A stretch of 64,000 nt of DNA from Candidatus Bilamarchaeaceae archaeon (GCA_038870635.1 JAVZJR010000001.1:90133-154132); one strand, 5' to 3'. Shown: positions 4,578-19,622, counted from the first letter of the stretch. Notes: generated by a model not told the origin, from the letters alone. Numbers and translations: made by a program.

Positions 4578-5663
4578 CTACCTGTTAAAATATATAAGCT
4601 CGTAAAGCTTTTCTCTATCAAGCTTATCTAAAAATTCTTTTTTTATTTTAATAAACGTTTCATTATCTAATGGTGTTTTTTCTTTTTTAGAATCTGCAGA
4701 TTGGCGAAGAGATTTTGCTCTTATTTGTATATTTTCCTTTGAGGCAGGAGGTTGTCCTGGTCCGCCCACGCAACCAAAAGGACACATCATAATTTCAACT
4801 AGATGGTAGGTTTGGCCAGCTTTAATTTCCTCGTATAGCTTTTCAAAATTAGGCAGACCGTGTACTATCGCTATATTTAGAATATGTTTTCCTATCTTCA
4901 CTGTTTTTTTTCTTATTTCACCATTATCCCTAAAATCAGTTATCTCGATTTTCTCCCCATACATTTGGGCGAGGGTAGTAATTATTGCTTCTGTAACGCC
5001 TCCGGTAGCTCCAAAAACCACTCCATCTTTTGAGCTATTCGGCATAAAAGAGGAAAATTTATCTTCTGGCAAGCTGTTAAAATCTATTCCTTTTTTCTTT
5101 GCCCATTGCGCAAGTTCTACAGTAGTAACAACATAATCAACATATCGATTACCATTCCTCATAACTTCTAGTGTTTCATATTTTTTAAGAGCACATGGCA
5201 TTACACCAACTATTATTATGTCTTCTGGTTTTCTATTCAATTTCTCCGCAAAATAATACTTTGCCACTGCCCCTATTGTCATTTGTGGTGATGCAACAAT
5301 AGTTATATTACCTAAAAGTTCTGGATGCATCTTTCCCGCATACATTCGCCAGCCGATGCAACAGGAATTAAAAATCGGAAATTTTCCTCCTCCATTGTCT
5401 AATCTTTCCTTTAAATCTTCGGCTTCATAATAAGTACTTATATCTGCACCAAGTGGGGTATCCACCACTTCTTGAAAACCGAGTTTTTTTAGCAGTGTTA
5501 TCGCCTTTCCTTCCACGTTTGTGCCCACTGGAAAGCCAAACAACTCCCCTAATGCAACTCTAACAGCAGGAGCAAGTTCTGCTATCACAATCTTTCCGCT
5601 CTTCATTTCATTTTCTATTTTTTCAAAAAGTGCATCACCATAAATAATTCTGTCATTGGCCAT
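4578..5663 (-). CDS. hydA: [FeFe]-hydrogenase catalytic H-domain protein, minimal form with no accessory FeS domains
   Basis: All three H-cluster signatures present: FNSCCIGW (L1, TSCCPxW-like), MPCALKKYE (L2, MPCxxKxxE), EIMMCPFGCVGGPGQP (L3, ExMACxxGCxxGGGQP); also APAVRVALGELFG and FGATGGVTEA, colinear with Clostridium CpI / Chlamydomonas HydA1 core. Confidence 0.75.
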   Translation of the reverse strand: MANDRIIYGDALFEKIENEMKSGKIVIAELAPAVRVALGELFGFPVGTNVEGKAITLLKKLGFQEVVDTPLGADISTYYEAEDLKERLDNGGGKFPIFNSCCIGWRMYAGKMHPELLGNITIVASPQMTIGAVAKYYFAEKLNRKPEDIIIVGVMPCALKKYETLEVMRNGNRYVDYVVTTVELAQWAKKKGIDFNSLPEDKFSSFMPNSSKDGVVFGATGGVTEAIITTLAQMYGEKIEITDFRDNGEIRKKTVKIGKHILNIAIVHGLPNFEKLYEEIKAGQTYHLVEIMMCPFGCVGGPGQPPASKENIQIRAKSLRQSADSKKEKTPLDNETFIKIKKEFLDKLDREKLYELIYFNR

Positions 5664-15852: not shown

Positions 15853-16785
15853 ATGCAACAAAAAATAAAAGACGAAATAAAAGACATAAAATCTCTAAAA
15901 ATACAAGGAGCGAGAAATGTTGCAAAAGCAGCGTTAGATGCTCTAATTTTGCAGGCAAGACTATCAAAAGCAAAAAACATCCATTATTATGTAAAAGAAC
16001 TAACAGCAGTAAAGGAAATTTTAGCTTACTCGAGACCAACGGAACCTATGATGAGAAACCTCTTAGATGACGCAATAGATTTCTTAGTCGTAGAATCAAA
16101 AAAAGTAAAAAGTATGGATGAATTGCGAGAGATCTTTGTAAGAAGAGAAAAAGAAGTTATAGAAAGATTAGACCAAGATGCTAAAAAAATATATGAATAT
16201 GGTGCAAGATTAATACCCAAAGGTTACACAGTAATGACGTATTGCCACAGTTCTACTGTGACTGGTATACTAAAAAAAGCAAGAGAAAAAGATAGAACAC
16301 TTAAAGTAATAGTGTGTGAAACAAGGCCGCGATACCAAGGAAGAATAACAGCAAAAGAGCTAGCAGAAGCTGGCATAGATACCACTCTTATAGTAGATGG
16401 TGCAGTAAATATGTTTATGAAAAAAACCGATCTTGTACTTGTTGGGGCAGATTCTGTTACAAGCAGGGGCGACCTCATAAATAAAGTCGGCACCTCCACA
16501 TTAGCCCATATAGCTAGAATGCATGATGTTTCTTTTTATTCTGCAGCAGAACTCTTTAAGTACAGTAGAAAAACATTTGAAGGAGAACTTGAAAAAATAG
16601 AAGAAAGAGATAAAAAAGAAGTATGGGAAGACGCCCCTAAAAAAGTAAAGATAAGGAATCCTGCTTTTGATGTCACTTCTGCAAAATACATCAATGGTTA
16701 TATAACAGAAGTTGGTGTAATCCCACCTCAATCTTTTTTTGCGCTAGCAACTGAAAAGTTAGGATTGAAAATATTTGGAAGGTGA
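15853..16785 (+). CDS. e2b2: eIF-2B alpha/beta/delta family isomerase, probably ribose-1,5-bisphosphate isomerase
   Basis: eIF2B-like fold with Cys (TYCHSSTV) and Asp (GADSV) at the catalytic positions; sits immediately upstream of AMP phosphorylase. Confidence 0.6.
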   Translation: MQQKIKDEIKDIKSLKIQGARNVAKAALDALILQARLSKAKNIHYYVKELTAVKEILAYSRPTEPMMRNLLDDAIDFLVVESKKVKSMDELREIFVRREKEVIERLDQDAKKIYEYGARLIPKGYTVMTYCHSSTVTGILKKAREKDRTLKVIVCETRPRYQGRITAKELAEAGIDTTLIVDGAVNMFMKKTDLVLVGADSVTSRGDLINKVGTSTLAHIARMHDVSFYSAAELFKYSRKTFEGELEKIEERDKKEVWEDAPKKVKIRNPAFDVTSAKYINGYITEVGVIPPQSFFALATEKLGLKIFGR

Positions 16786-16790
16786 GAAAG

Positions 16791-18407
16791 ATGGTAAATA
16801 AAAATAATGAAAATATAAATAACGATAAAAAGAAAAACGACAATAACAAAATTTTTGTAGAAAAAGAAACAACGAAAGTAGATGTTTGGAGAATAAAGAA
16901 ATATGTGTGTAAAGTAAAACCAATAGGAATTTATACAGGTAAAAACATAATAGTGCTAAACAAAACGCAAGCAATGGGACACGATATATACGAAGGCTAT
17001 CGAACAATATTGAAAAAAAATAGCACAGAAATAGTAGCAATAGTAGACGTTAGCGATGAGATAGTAAAACACGGAGAGGTTGGTGTTTATTCCGATATCG
17101 CAAAGGAATTTGGACTTAAAGAAGGTGACACAGTAGAAATAGTGCACATGGACCAACCTGATTCAATAGCATACATAAAAAAGAAATTAAATAAGGGAAC
17201 GCTTAGTGAGCATGAAATAAAAACAATAGTAAACGAAATAATGCGAAACGAATTAAGCGAAATAGAAGTGTCGGCTTGGATAACGGCTGCTTACATCAAT
17301 GGTTTTTCAGATGATGAGATAGTAGCACTAACTAATGCAACAGTGGAATCTGGAGAACGTTTGGAACTCGGAAAAAAACCAGTTGTAGATAAACATTGTA
17401 TAGGAGGAGTTGCTGGAAACAGAACTACCATGATAGTAACTCCAATAATAGCTGCCGCTGGTCTTTATATACCTAAAACATCTTCACGAGCGATAACATC
17501 CGCGGCTGGGACTGCAGACACAATGGAAGTTCTTTGCAATGTAACATTCAATATCCATGAGTTGAAAGAAATCGTACTAAAAACACATGGTGCGATGGTA
17601 TGGGGCGGCGGAATGAAACTTGCCCCTGTGGATGATAAACTCATAAGAATCAGACACCCATTAAGCTTGGATCCAGAGGGAATGTTATTGGCGAGCATAC
17701 TCGCGAAGAAGAAAGCAGTGGGCGCAGAATATGTTATAGTTGATATTCCAGTCGGACGCGGTGTTAAAGTACCATACTACGAAAAAGGACAAGAATTAGC
17801 TAAACATTTCCTTAGAATAGGAAATCAACTTAACATGAAATTAGAGGTTCTGATAACGGATGGTGCTGAACCTATAGGACAAGGTATCGGACCTGCATTA
17901 GAATGTATAGATGTTCTAAAAGTTTTATCTGGCGAAGGCCCAGAAGATCTTAAACACAAATCCCTTTTAATGGCTGGAAAATTGCTTGAGTTAACTGGTA
18001 AAGTAGGAAAAGATGAAGGTTACAAAGCAGCTGAAGAAATTCTACTTTCTGGGAAAGCGCTTAGGAAATTCTTAGAAATAGTAGAAGCGCAAGGCGGAAA
18101 CCCAAACGTAAAGATAACAGATATCCCTGTTGGTCAGTATACTTATACTGTAAAGGCTCAAACAAAAGGGACTATTTACCATATTGATAACCACACAATA
18201 GCAAAAATAGCAAGAATAGCAGGCGCACCCCGTTCGAAAGGTGCTGGCGTTTTACTTCATAAAGCACGAGGTGATAGAATAGTCCCTGGCGATCCATTAT
18301 TCACGATATATGCTGAAAGCGAGCAATCTTTAGATTATGCAATAAAGGCACTTGAAAAAATAGAACCAATAGAACTCAGAAAGATGCTTCTTGGCACAAT
18401 GATGTAA
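16791..18407 (+). CDS. deoA: AMP phosphorylase (thymidine phosphorylase family with N-terminal extension)
   Basis: DKHCIGGVAGN and SAAGTADT pyrimidine-nucleoside-phosphorylase motifs plus a ~90-aa N-terminal extension typical of archaeal AMPpase; GGAAGGTGAGA SD before the ATG. Confidence 0.7.
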   Translation: MVNKNNENINNDKKKNDNNKIFVEKETTKVDVWRIKKYVCKVKPIGIYTGKNIIVLNKTQAMGHDIYEGYRTILKKNSTEIVAIVDVSDEIVKHGEVGVYSDIAKEFGLKEGDTVEIVHMDQPDSIAYIKKKLNKGTLSEHEIKTIVNEIMRNELSEIEVSAWITAAYINGFSDDEIVALTNATVESGERLELGKKPVVDKHCIGGVAGNRTTMIVTPIIAAAGLYIPKTSSRAITSAAGTADTMEVLCNVTFNIHELKEIVLKTHGAMVWGGGMKLAPVDDKLIRIRHPLSLDPEGMLLASILAKKKAVGAEYVIVDIPVGRGVKVPYYEKGQELAKHFLRIGNQLNMKLEVLITDGAEPIGQGIGPALECIDVLKVLSGEGPEDLKHKSLLMAGKLLELTGKVGKDEGYKAAEEILLSGKALRKFLEIVEAQGGNPNVKITDIPVGQYTYTVKAQTKGTIYHIDNHTIAKIARIAGAPRSKGAGVLLHKARGDRIVPGDPLFTIYAESEQSLDYAIKALEKIEPIELRKMLLGTMM

Positions 18408-18444
18408 AGTTTAAAAAGAGTTGTAATAGTAATTTTCATACTAA

Positions 18445-18573
18445 CCCGACGTAGCTCAAAGTGGCGTATGCCCGAGCAATGGTAGAGCGATCGGCTGTAG
18501 TTTGTTTTCTCCATATGGAGAGATAGGTCGCTCAGAAACCGATAGGTTCCTGGTTCAAGTCCGGGCGTCGGGA
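18445..18573 (+). tRNA. tRNA-Tyr (GUA) with two introns (D-loop ~18460-18479 and canonical 37/38 ~18501-18537)
   Basis: Perfect 7-bp acceptor stem CCCGACG/CGTCGGG, discriminator A, T-arm CCTGG-TTCAAGT-CCGGG, anticodon stem ATCGG/CCGAT enclosing CTGTAG+intron+A; removing a 20-nt insert restores the canonical D-arm GCTCAATGGTAGAGC. Confidence 0.65.
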
Positions 18574-18581
18574 TTTTTTTA
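18574..18581 (+). terminator. Oligo-T run after tRNA-Tyr
   Basis: ttttttt directly 3' of the tRNA. Confidence 0.4.
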
Positions 18582-18599: not shown

Positions 18600-19622
18600 T
18601 TGAAAATAAAGAAAATATTAGCAACACTTATTTTTCTATTCCTTTTAGTACTCACTCTCTTATATCTAGAACAAAAACAAGAAAATGAAAAACCACAAGA
18701 AAATTGCGGCAATCTAAGTATTTACATAATAAATGTAAGCCAAGCAGATTCTATTTTAATAATCACACCGCAAAACAAAACAATACTAATAGATTCGGGC
18801 TCTTCTATAACTAAAAACTCAAGCAAAGCAGTAGTGGAATTTTTAAAAGCGCGAGGTGTAAAAACAGTGGATATTTTTATAGCAACACATTATCACGAAG
18901 ACCACATAGGAGGGGTACCGCTGATTTTCAAAAATTTTGAAGTTAAACAAGTATATGACAATGGAAATTGCGGCAATTATAGTAGCGAAAGTCAGAGAAA
19001 GTATGTGGAATACACAAAGCTAATCAATCGAAAAATTGTCTCAAAAAACGAACAATTGAATATTGATAATTGTATTAACAGCAGTATAATCGTGCCCTAC
19101 GCAACTATGGGTTGCCAACCTAGCCATAAGGATACTAAACTAGAAAATGAAAATTCAATAGTGGTTTATATAAAATACAAAAATACCTCTTTCTTACTTG
19201 CTGGCGACTGTGAACAAAAATGCGAAACGGAATTAGTAAAGAGGTACAACATATCAGCAAATTTATTGAAAATAAATCATCATGGAAGCGATACTTCTTC
19301 TACTAAAGAGTTTTTGAGTATGGCAAATGCGACTTATTTTGTTATTTCCACTAATAAAGACAGGAGTGCAGAGTTAAATTACTACCATCCTCGTGCAGCG
19401 ATGCTTAGCAGAATCTACATTCACGGAGCACGCCTTGGTACTTTCTTCCGCACTGATCTGAACGGAAATATAGCTATAACATCAGATGGAACAAAGATAA
19501 ATGTAGAAGCAGACTATCTTGTAGATGAATGCGAACTTTTTAGTGGTTATTACTCAAATAACTTCTACTCTTACAAGCCAATAGAAGAGTTGAAACAAAA
19601 ATGCGCAAACAATTTAAACTGA
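18600..19622 (+). CDS. Secreted metallo-beta-lactamase fold hydrolase (ComEC-type MBL domain-like)
   Basis: Signal peptide, ADSILIITPQNKTILIDSG and ATHYHEDHIGG (HxHxDH) motifs; TTG start. Confidence 0.55.
   Translation: MKIKKILATLIFLFLLVLTLLYLEQKQENEKPQENCGNLSIYIINVSQADSILIITPQNKTILIDSGSSITKNSSKAVVEFLKARGVKTVDIFIATHYHEDHIGGVPLIFKNFEVKQVYDNGNCGNYSSESQRKYVEYTKLINRKIVSKNEQLNIDNCINSSIIVPYATMGCQPSHKDTKLENENSIVVYIKYKNTSFLLAGDCEQKCETELVKRYNISANLLKINHHGSDTSSTKEFLSMANATYFVISTNKDRSAELNYYHPRAAMLSRIYIHGARLGTFFRTDLNGNIAITSDGTKINVEADYLVDECELFSGYYSNNFYSYKPIEELKQKCANNLN

Follow-up and report, generated by a model that had tools for sequence, protein, structure and literature searches.

Does the 129-nt segment at positions 18445 to 18573 encode a working tRNA-Tyr whose transcript loses two introns, one of them in the D-loop, or is it the remnant of a degenerate tRNA gene? 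The segment lies in a 64,000-nt stretch of DNA analyzed here over its whole length (the window) and assigned to the Bilamarchaeaceae (Micrarchaeota, DPANN). The assignment agrees with the protein evidence: a "Candidatus Bilamarchaeaceae archaeon" MAG encodes a protein that matches the AMP phosphorylase of the window at 100% identity, and the close hits of this enzyme are all from Micrarchaeota. The family is placed in the order Anstonellales, class Micrarchaeia. The G+C content is ∼36% throughout. We consider the segment to be, with a probability of about 0.88, a functional tRNA-Tyr(GUA) gene with two protein-spliced introns. The features on which this reading is built are as follows.

18410 to 18417, plus strand: TATA-like box TTTAAAAA, 28 to 35 nt upstream of the mature 5' end and right after the AMP phosphorylase stop codon
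18445 to 18459, plus strand: exon 1 (tRNA nucleotides 1 to 15), with the acceptor 5' strand CCCGACG, U8, A9, the D-stem 5' strand GCUC, A14, and A15
18454 to 18477, plus strand: bulge-helix-bulge (BHB) core of intron 1, as found in the MFE structure
18460 to 18479, plus strand: intron 1, 20 nt, AGUGGCGUAUGCCCGAGCAA, at position 15/16 in the D-loop
18480 to 18500, plus strand: exon 2 (tRNA nucleotides 16 to 37), with the rest of the D-loop, the D-stem 3' strand, the anticodon-stem 5' strand, C32, U33, the anticodon GUA (18497 to 18499), and G37
18501 to 18537, plus strand: intron 2, 37 nt, UUUGUUUUCUCCAUAUGGAGAGAUAGGUCGCUCAGAA, at the canonical position 37/38
18526 to 18533, plus strand: intron strand GGUCGCUC of a helix that we call helix X, complementary to exon positions 18485 to 18492 (GAGCGAUC) and present in the MFE structure
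18538 to 18573, plus strand: exon 3 (tRNA nucleotides 38 to 73), with the anticodon-stem 3' strand, the variable loop AGGUU, the T-arm, the acceptor 3' strand, and A73
18574 to 18580, plus strand: run of 7 T immediately after A73

Read in order on the plus strand, the gene consists of CCCGACG UA GCUC AA, then AGUGGCGUAUGCCCGAGCAA, then UGGUA GAGC G AUCGG CUGUAG, then UUUGUUUUCUCCAUAUGGAGAGAUAGGUCGCUCAGAA, and finally A CCGAU AGGUU CCUGG UUCAAGU CCGGG CGUCGGG A. Removal of positions 18460 to 18479 (20 nt) and 18501 to 18537 (37 nt) left 72 nt, for which the MFE structure was an exact cloverleaf (−28.4 kcal/mol) and for which ARAGORN returned tRNA-Tyr(gta). When intron 1 alone was removed, ARAGORN gave a tRNA-Tyr with an anticodon-loop intron, corresponding to intron 2. 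At the predicted mature junction of exons 1 and 2, GCUCAA is joined to UGGUAGAGC. The spliced product has the properties of a class I archaeal tRNA-Tyr: a cloverleaf, the anticodon GUA, C1-G72, A73, and a short variable loop. The C1-G72 pair and A73 are archaeal Tyr identity elements. CCA is not encoded at the 3' end of the gene after A73. The original prediction had proposed a tRNA-Tyr(GUA) with two inserts, a perfect acceptor stem, a D-arm restored by taking out positions 18460 to 18479, and a second intron of 37 nt at 37/38. Each of these points was borne out, with seven of seven Watson-Crick pairs in the acceptor stem (CCCGACG/CGUCGGG), a restored D-arm of GCUC-AAUGGUA-GAGC, and exact coordinates for the second intron. 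The T-arm, also described as perfect, does pair over 5 bp (CCUGG/CCGGG, with the T-loop UUCAAGU), but one of the five is a U-G wobble.

The unspliced gene went unrecognized by the tRNA finders that we applied. ARAGORN made no call for it in the whole 64-kb window in either default or intron mode, and the Rfam tRNA model at its gathering threshold detected nothing at the locus. Only in E-value mode was there an Rfam match, which at 18.9 bits lies below the gathering score of 29. We set aside two kinds of spurious output: with a lowered threshold, ARAGORN yielded nonsense calls only, such as a tRNA-Thr(ggt) with a 43-nt "intron," and the 18.9-bit Rfam alignment starts inside intron 1 at CCCGA (18471), an acceptor misalignment and no alternative gene. 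The ARAGORN check suggested with the original prediction thus leaves the precursor uncalled and recovers a tRNA-Tyr once the inserts are cut out in silico. Because the gene is missed by ARAGORN and falls below the Rfam threshold, genomes of this Bilamarchaeaceae lineage can seem to be without tRNA-Tyr, which affects completeness estimates of DPANN MAGs. The Bilamarchaeaceae type genome has been reported with 20/21 tRNA types (PMC8561730). tRNAscan-SE 2.0 does look for such introns, with models trained on Crenarchaeota, Euryarchaeota, and Thaumarchaeota (PMC8450103). Elsewhere in the 64-kb window, an uninterrupted tRNA-Ser(GCU) is located at 2084 to 2168, 9 nt after the aIF2-gamma gene (885 to 2075); no tRNA beyond this one and the tRNA-Tyr was found there by ARAGORN, by Rfam at its gathering threshold or in the E-value scan, or by a custom acceptor-plus-T-arm scan.

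The tRNA-Tyr gene is set among archaeal protein-coding genes. Upstream are the genes for ribose-1,5-bisphosphate isomerase (15853 to 16785) and AMP phosphorylase (16782 to 18407), which overlap by 4 nt and form a pair that is syntenic across Micrarchaeota; the latter stops 38 nt short of the tRNA. A metallo-beta-lactamase-fold protein is encoded downstream (18600 to 19622), and further archaeal flanking genes encode an ATP-dependent DNA ligase and a Cdc48-like ATPase. At 4578 to 5663 on the minus strand, we also noted an open reading frame matching the Fe-only hydrogenase large subunit C-terminal domain (PF02906, 1.9e-72), in what is a small DPANN genome. An A/T box (TTTAAAAA, TTATAAAT, or TTTTAAAT) was present at the same distance from the tRNA in 12/12 syntenic relatives, and T-runs follow tRNA-Tyr in most of them. 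We regard the box as a putative archaeal promoter of the tRNA and the run of 7 T as a putative archaeal transcription terminator.

Whether the D-loop insert is an intron depends on the structure that it can form with its exons. At intron 1, a BHB core is part of the precursor's MFE fold (−51.3 kcal/mol). Its central helix, H, pairs exon nucleotides G10, C11, U12, and C13 (18454 to 18457) with the intron sequence GAGC (18474 to 18477) over 4 bp, at a pair probability of 0.98. The helix is flanked by two 3-nt bulges, one made up of A14, A15, and the first intron nucleotide, A (18458 to 18460), and the other of the last two intron nucleotides, A and A, with U16 (18478 to 18480). Between the bulges, the inner hairpin h' (18461 to 18473) comprises a G-C pair, a 1-nt U bulge, the helix GGC/GCC, and the loop GUAU, with pair probabilities of 0.74 to 0.98. 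An outer helix h is absent at intron 1, where A9 and U8 are unable to pair with nucleotides past the 3' bulge. Since no outer helix can form, the motif belongs to the relaxed HBh' type, with H, two 3-nt bulges, and h', and lies outside the strict hBHBh' type. A BHB-type motif at the D-loop junctions had been named as the structural check on the original prediction, and the relaxed form of that motif is what the fold provides.

The same geometry fixes the position of the intron. By sequence alone, its boundary slides over four positions, from 12/13 to 15/16, with the product unchanged; cutting each strand after the second bulge nucleotide sets it at 15/16, which is where the insert of about 18460 to 18479 had been placed from the outset. 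This cutting rule agrees with the canonical 37/38 geometry and with the A-I pair of yeast pre-tRNAs. One detail of the original prediction had to be replaced. The intron ends in GAGCAA, which had been taken to mimic the exon sequence at the 5' boundary; instead, GAGC is the complement of exon GCUC (nucleotides 10 to 13) and forms H, and the final AA belongs to the 3' bulge. The GAGC of the intron is also the same as the D-stem 3' strand that takes its place after splicing.

The locus was then compared with those of relatives. The gene order ribose-1,5-bisphosphate isomerase, AMP phosphorylase, tRNA-Tyr is kept, and the tRNA was recovered in 12 syntenic relatives whose AMP phosphorylases are 60 to 91% identical to that of the window. 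An AMP phosphorylase scan of genome contigs gave 10 loci, which serve as controls and do not amount to a broad survey. Inserts of 16 to 33 nt occupy the same D-loop site in seven types of relatives (L079, L001/L080/L055, L002, L003/L004, L083, and L084); these mostly differ in sequence, and all start with AG and end with GAG(C/U)A(A/U). The exon 1 sequence is shared unchanged by L079, L001, L080, L005, and L081. Across the window, L079, L001, and L005, the exons are 100% identical, whereas intron 1 is 65 to 80% and intron 2 62 to 92% identical, and the length of intron 1 changes. Unchanged exons with diverged introns are the opposite of pseudogene decay.

Two of the relatives offer a natural empty site. 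In L005 and L081, all 72 exon bases are 100% identical to those of the window and the D-loop is uninterrupted (GCTCAATGGTAGAGC), with no insert; the adjacent protein is 83 to 84% identical, the Rfam tRNA score reaches 56.3 bits, and ARAGORN in intron mode finds the gene. Neighbor-joining analysis of the adjacent protein places L005 and L081, with a bootstrap value of 100, within a clade whose other members all have the insert. The insert-bearing L002 and the L003/L083/L084 group branch outside that clade in the same tree, and the outgroup relatives L009 and L010 (60%) likewise are without a D-loop insert. Since L005 and L081 carry the exact predicted junction and are nested among insert carriers, their state points to precise intron loss. 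These placements indicate that an ancestral D-loop intron followed by one precise loss in L005/L081 would be the simplest reading, and the empty sites confirm the mature junction predicted from the window.

Several other features of these loci were observed along the way. The tRNA-Tyr sits in a 190- to 250-nt gap after the isomerase/AMP phosphorylase pair in most relatives examined, and the pair is a handy anchor for locating hidden tRNA-Tyr genes. In L005 (3164 to 3291) and L081 (2364 to 2491), the 37/38 intron measures 56 nt versus 37 nt in the window and has an extra hairpin (CTGGCAAATCCAG), such that loss of the D-loop intron coincides with a longer 37/38 intron. L003 (4150 to 4315) and L004 (GCA_038851325.1/GCA_038870055.1) have a third insert of ∼39 nt, which interrupts the T-loop between TTCAA and GT and runs from ATGCAC to GAATAC; with all three inserts taken out, 72 nt remain and ARAGORN calls tRNA-Tyr. 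L004 departs from L003 in that 10 nt (ATACCGATAG) are duplicated in tandem where the 37/38 intron meets its 3' exon, which makes for a longer intron and a better central helix.

To follow the D-loop motif beyond the syntenic loci, we scanned the metagenome collection with the pattern TAGCTCAR-N{10,40}-TGGTAGAGC-N6-CTGTAG, in which only exon bases are constrained and the insert is free. The scan matched 64 contigs with 56 unique D-loop inserts. With the register (0 to 2 nt) picked to maximize H, 43/56 inserts form a perfect 4-bp H with exon GCUC (through GAGC, GAGU, GGGU, or GGGC) exactly 2 nt before exon 2, and another 10/56 form three of the four pairs; the scan pattern itself fixes the exon strand of H, which leaves G-U variation as the only kind that H can show. 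A hairpin directly abuts H in these inserts. Among the 56 unique inserts, the combination of a 4-bp H with an h' of at least 3 bp occurred in 62.5%, compared with 0.3% of shuffles, and the 3-4-3 bulge-helix-bulge spacing is kept while insert length ranges from 15 to 36 nt.

Covariation in h' was assessed in an end-anchored alignment (A1) of 46 distinct rows, with the variable middle swapped for a spacer. Standard pairs fill 92.4% of cells in A1 versus 71.4% in shuffles, a value that 0/500 shuffles reach. All four h' pairs covary, with 92 double-change cells against 28 expected and all six pair types present, and pairing falls to 37 to 55% when the 3' partner is slid by 1 to 3 columns. The motif is thus kept by compensatory change while intron sequence and length drift. 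The conservation of the D-loop BHB motif with covariation in homologues upholds the original view of the gene as a multi-intron archaeal tRNA.

The metagenome set also contained tRNA-Tyr genes of other kinds. Long 37/38 introns of 44 to 129 nt are found in D-loop-intron tRNA-Tyr genes of other lineages (L016, L027-L035, L040, L050, L052, L054, L058, L061-L065, and L073-L076). These share the pattern ...(R)ATGAA...TCAGCC(G/A), of which CAGCCG complements exon C29-G34, and additional inserts are present in the variable or T region of several of the genes. A different class is represented by L019, L024, and L070, tRNA-Tyr-like sequences with the acceptor CCGAAC/CCGAGC, an A/T-rich D-loop insert that has no GAGC strand and in which no BHB was parsed, and a 37/38 intron of only 12 to 16 nt.

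Intron 2 occupies the canonical site and forms a less regular motif. The outer helix is the anticodon stem (27-31/39-43). The central helix is only 3 bp long, pairing CUG at 18495 to 18497 with CAG at 18533 to 18535 (C32-G, U33-A, and G34-C), with a U35-U mismatch, and the internal hairpin of 7 bp (18506 to 18512 with 18517 to 18523) does not abut it. As for the fold expected at the 37/38 junctions, the 3' splice site does lie in a 3-nt bulge of A, A, and A38 (18536 to 18538), cut before A38, but the central helix stops at 3 bp and the 5' splice site is outside any clean 3-nt bulge. The motif is relaxed and hBH-like and falls short of the strict hBHBh' form. In constrained folds, the BHB-compatible conformer of intron 2 lies 2.2 kcal/mol above the MFE, and 0.6 kcal/mol above it once intron 1 has been removed.

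The precursor MFE favors the 8-bp exon-intron helix X over the anticodon stem. On its exon side, helix X takes up the D-stem 3' strand and the anticodon-stem 5' strand, and it competes with the cloverleaf. The 8-nt intron strand is found again in several intron types that are otherwise unlike one another, and in L002 a change in it compensates one in the exon. Shuffled introns, however, form an exon-intron helix of 8 bp or more (G-U allowed) in ∼50% of cases, and for this reason we do not claim helix X as a feature. Two side observations concern intron 2 itself. One is GGTCGCTC, a stretch of this intron that is complementary to exon GAGCGATC (D-stem 3' and anticodon-stem 5' strands). In addition, the exon heptamer GATAGGT is repeated in intron 2 (18522 to 18528, with the exon copy at 18541 to 18547), which suggests an old junction duplication, as in L004.

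How else might the locus be read? If it were a degenerate tRNA pseudogene, the D-loop insert would be a disruption that is never removed and the product would be nonfunctional. The failure of ARAGORN and Rfam to recognize the gene fits that idea, as do BHB motifs that are relaxed and not strict, yet the exons have remained 100% identical among relatives whose neighboring protein is only 83 to 91% identical, while introns and flanks have diverged. In dozens of lineages, compensatory changes preserve the BHB layout of the insert. The promoter box has likewise been conserved, as has the T-run, and no second tRNA-Tyr was seen at the locus; we judge decay to be very unlikely. An error of assembly, whether a misassembly or a chimera, is conceivable because the source is a MAG. 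The identical gene of 129 nt, however, has been assembled independently three times, in two NCBI MAGs and in one Logan assembly, so it is not an assembly artifact; homologous insert-bearing genes are moreover present in many unrelated assemblies, and this explanation is effectively excluded.

It is also conceivable that the tRNA is functional but loses only the 37/38 intron, the D-loop insert being retained as an expanded D-arm. The insert does form a stable local hairpin. With the insert in place, however, the D-stem 5' strand would pair with it at the expense of the normal 3' partner, which would destroy both the D-arm and the context of G18-G19. A fixed 3-4-3 spacing combined with variable length fits an EndA substrate and not a structural expansion, and close relatives function with identical exons and no insert. 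Retention is, in our judgment, highly improbable.

We therefore return to a functional gene with two introns, for which transcription, cleavage, ligation, and the order of the two splicing events are inferred from the sequence. A precursor of ∼130 nt would probably be transcribed from the gene's own TATA-box promoter. In this transcript, GAGC of intron 1 would pair with the D-stem 5' strand GCUC to give the 4-bp helix, the two 3-nt bulges that flank it, and the inner intron hairpin, and EndA would cut after the second nucleotide of each bulge, between 15 and 16. Intron 2 would be cut at 37/38 within the relaxed hBH-type motif on the anticodon stem. An RtcB-type ligase would then join the three exons, CCA would be added, and the 72-nt tRNA would fold into the cloverleaf. 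A bolder proposal is that selection has maintained the 15/16 intron in Micrarchaeota and other uncultured archaea as an old element of fixed position and vertical descent, which works with the 37/38 intron to block the cloverleaf until both are out. Intron 1 would sequester the D-stem 5' strand (GCUC with GAGC), and intron 2, through GGUCGCUC, the D-stem 3' strand and the anticodon-stem 5' strand. If true, the two introns would serve as a lock, built into the gene, for folding or quality control, or as a gate to modification of the D-arm; we consider this unlikely.

Relaxed motifs raise the matter of the enzyme. An EndA was not found in the window or in the fetched loci by phmmer with the M. 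jannaschii EndA as the query, a query confirmed against PDB 1a79 and matching ARMAN-2 4fz2 at 3e-34. When the query was rebuilt from the 4fz2 alignment, 1416 proteins were retrieved from the protein collection. The top matches are 368 to 406 aa long, cover 97 to 100% of the query, and are mostly labeled Micrarchaeota; representatives at 38 to 41% identity are labeled Anstonellales. A profile of these Anstonellales EndAs detected a 389-aa three-unit EndA in another Bilamarchaeaceae MAG (GCA_053576935.1), which is not the genome of the window, and the same profile search revealed that Anstonellaceae MAGs also encode such an EndA. The 389-aa protein is collinear with the ARMAN-2 epsilon-type enzyme, and in the alignments Y160/K161, Y236/H251/K282, and K224/D357 are invariant. 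These residues are reported to be, respectively, ARMAN-specific loop residues needed for bulge recognition (PMC12397907), the catalytic triad (PMC12397907), and dimerization contacts (PMC3239211). Judged by protein sequence, the Bilamarchaeaceae are a family with a three-unit epsilon-type EndA. Epsilon-type EndA is reported to have relaxed specificity (PMC3239211, PMC12397907), and cutting of relaxed motifs has been shown experimentally in ARMAN-2.

Neither multi-intron tRNAs nor introns in the D-loop are new to archaea. As many as three BHB introns, at noncanonical positions, are well known from single archaeal tRNA genes (PMC4090602, PMC4033280), and the present gene leaves the current view of archaeal tRNA splicing unchanged; its main value is for annotation. 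What it contributes is a clean case of a 15/16 D-loop intron in Micrarchaeota, with a natural empty site, precise loss, and dozens of covarying homologues. Reviews list 20/21, 22/23, 25/26, 29/30, 45/46, 59/60, "etc." and leave 15/16 unnamed (PMC4090602, PMC4033280). In a search that fell short of key older intron papers and supplements, we came across no mention of a tRNA-Tyr intron at 15/16, and we do not claim the position as new. The Thermoproteales likewise have several BHB introns per tRNA gene at noncanonical positions, with frequent gain and loss (PMC4090602, PMC4033280), but they belong to a different phylum and have a different EndA type; L003 of the present tRNA-Tyr set, with three introns, compares with the Thermoproteales maximum of three.

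Three individual systems come closer. The pre-tRNA-Glu(UUC) of Methanopyrus kandleri likewise combines a 37/38 intron with a relaxed HBh' D-loop intron, which is cut well only by a broad-specificity EndA (PMC5829648). There, however, the D-loop position is 20b/21, the tRNA is that for Glu, and the host belongs to the Methanopyri, as opposed to 15/16, Tyr, and Micrarchaeota here, and the likely enzyme is (alpha-beta)2 in M. kandleri and epsilon2 in the present case. Aeropyrum pernix pre-tRNA-Thr2(UGU) also has a D-loop BHB intron, which is cleaved in vitro by an (alpha-beta)2 EndA and hardly cut by a narrow-specificity EndA, a precedent for D-loop introns as real substrates (PMC3241643). That crenarchaeal tRNA has a single intron, an EndA of another subunit architecture, and demonstrated cleavage, whereas the present introns are known from sequence alone. 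Nearest in phylogeny is Ca. Micrarchaeum acidiphilum ARMAN-2, of the same phylum, in which 56% of tRNA genes are disrupted, introns are noncanonical, some tRNAs have two introns, and relaxed hBH motifs are cut by the epsilon2 EndA (PMC3239211, PMC3488258, PMC12397907). Its main-text examples are T-loop introns at 53/54 and 59/60 in tRNA-Cys and tRNA-Pro, and a 15/16 intron in tRNA-Tyr is not mentioned among them. ARMAN-2 belongs to the order Micrarchaeales and the Bilamarchaeaceae to the Anstonellales, and the present locus extends the association between epsilon-type EndA and disrupted tRNA genes from the former order to the latter.
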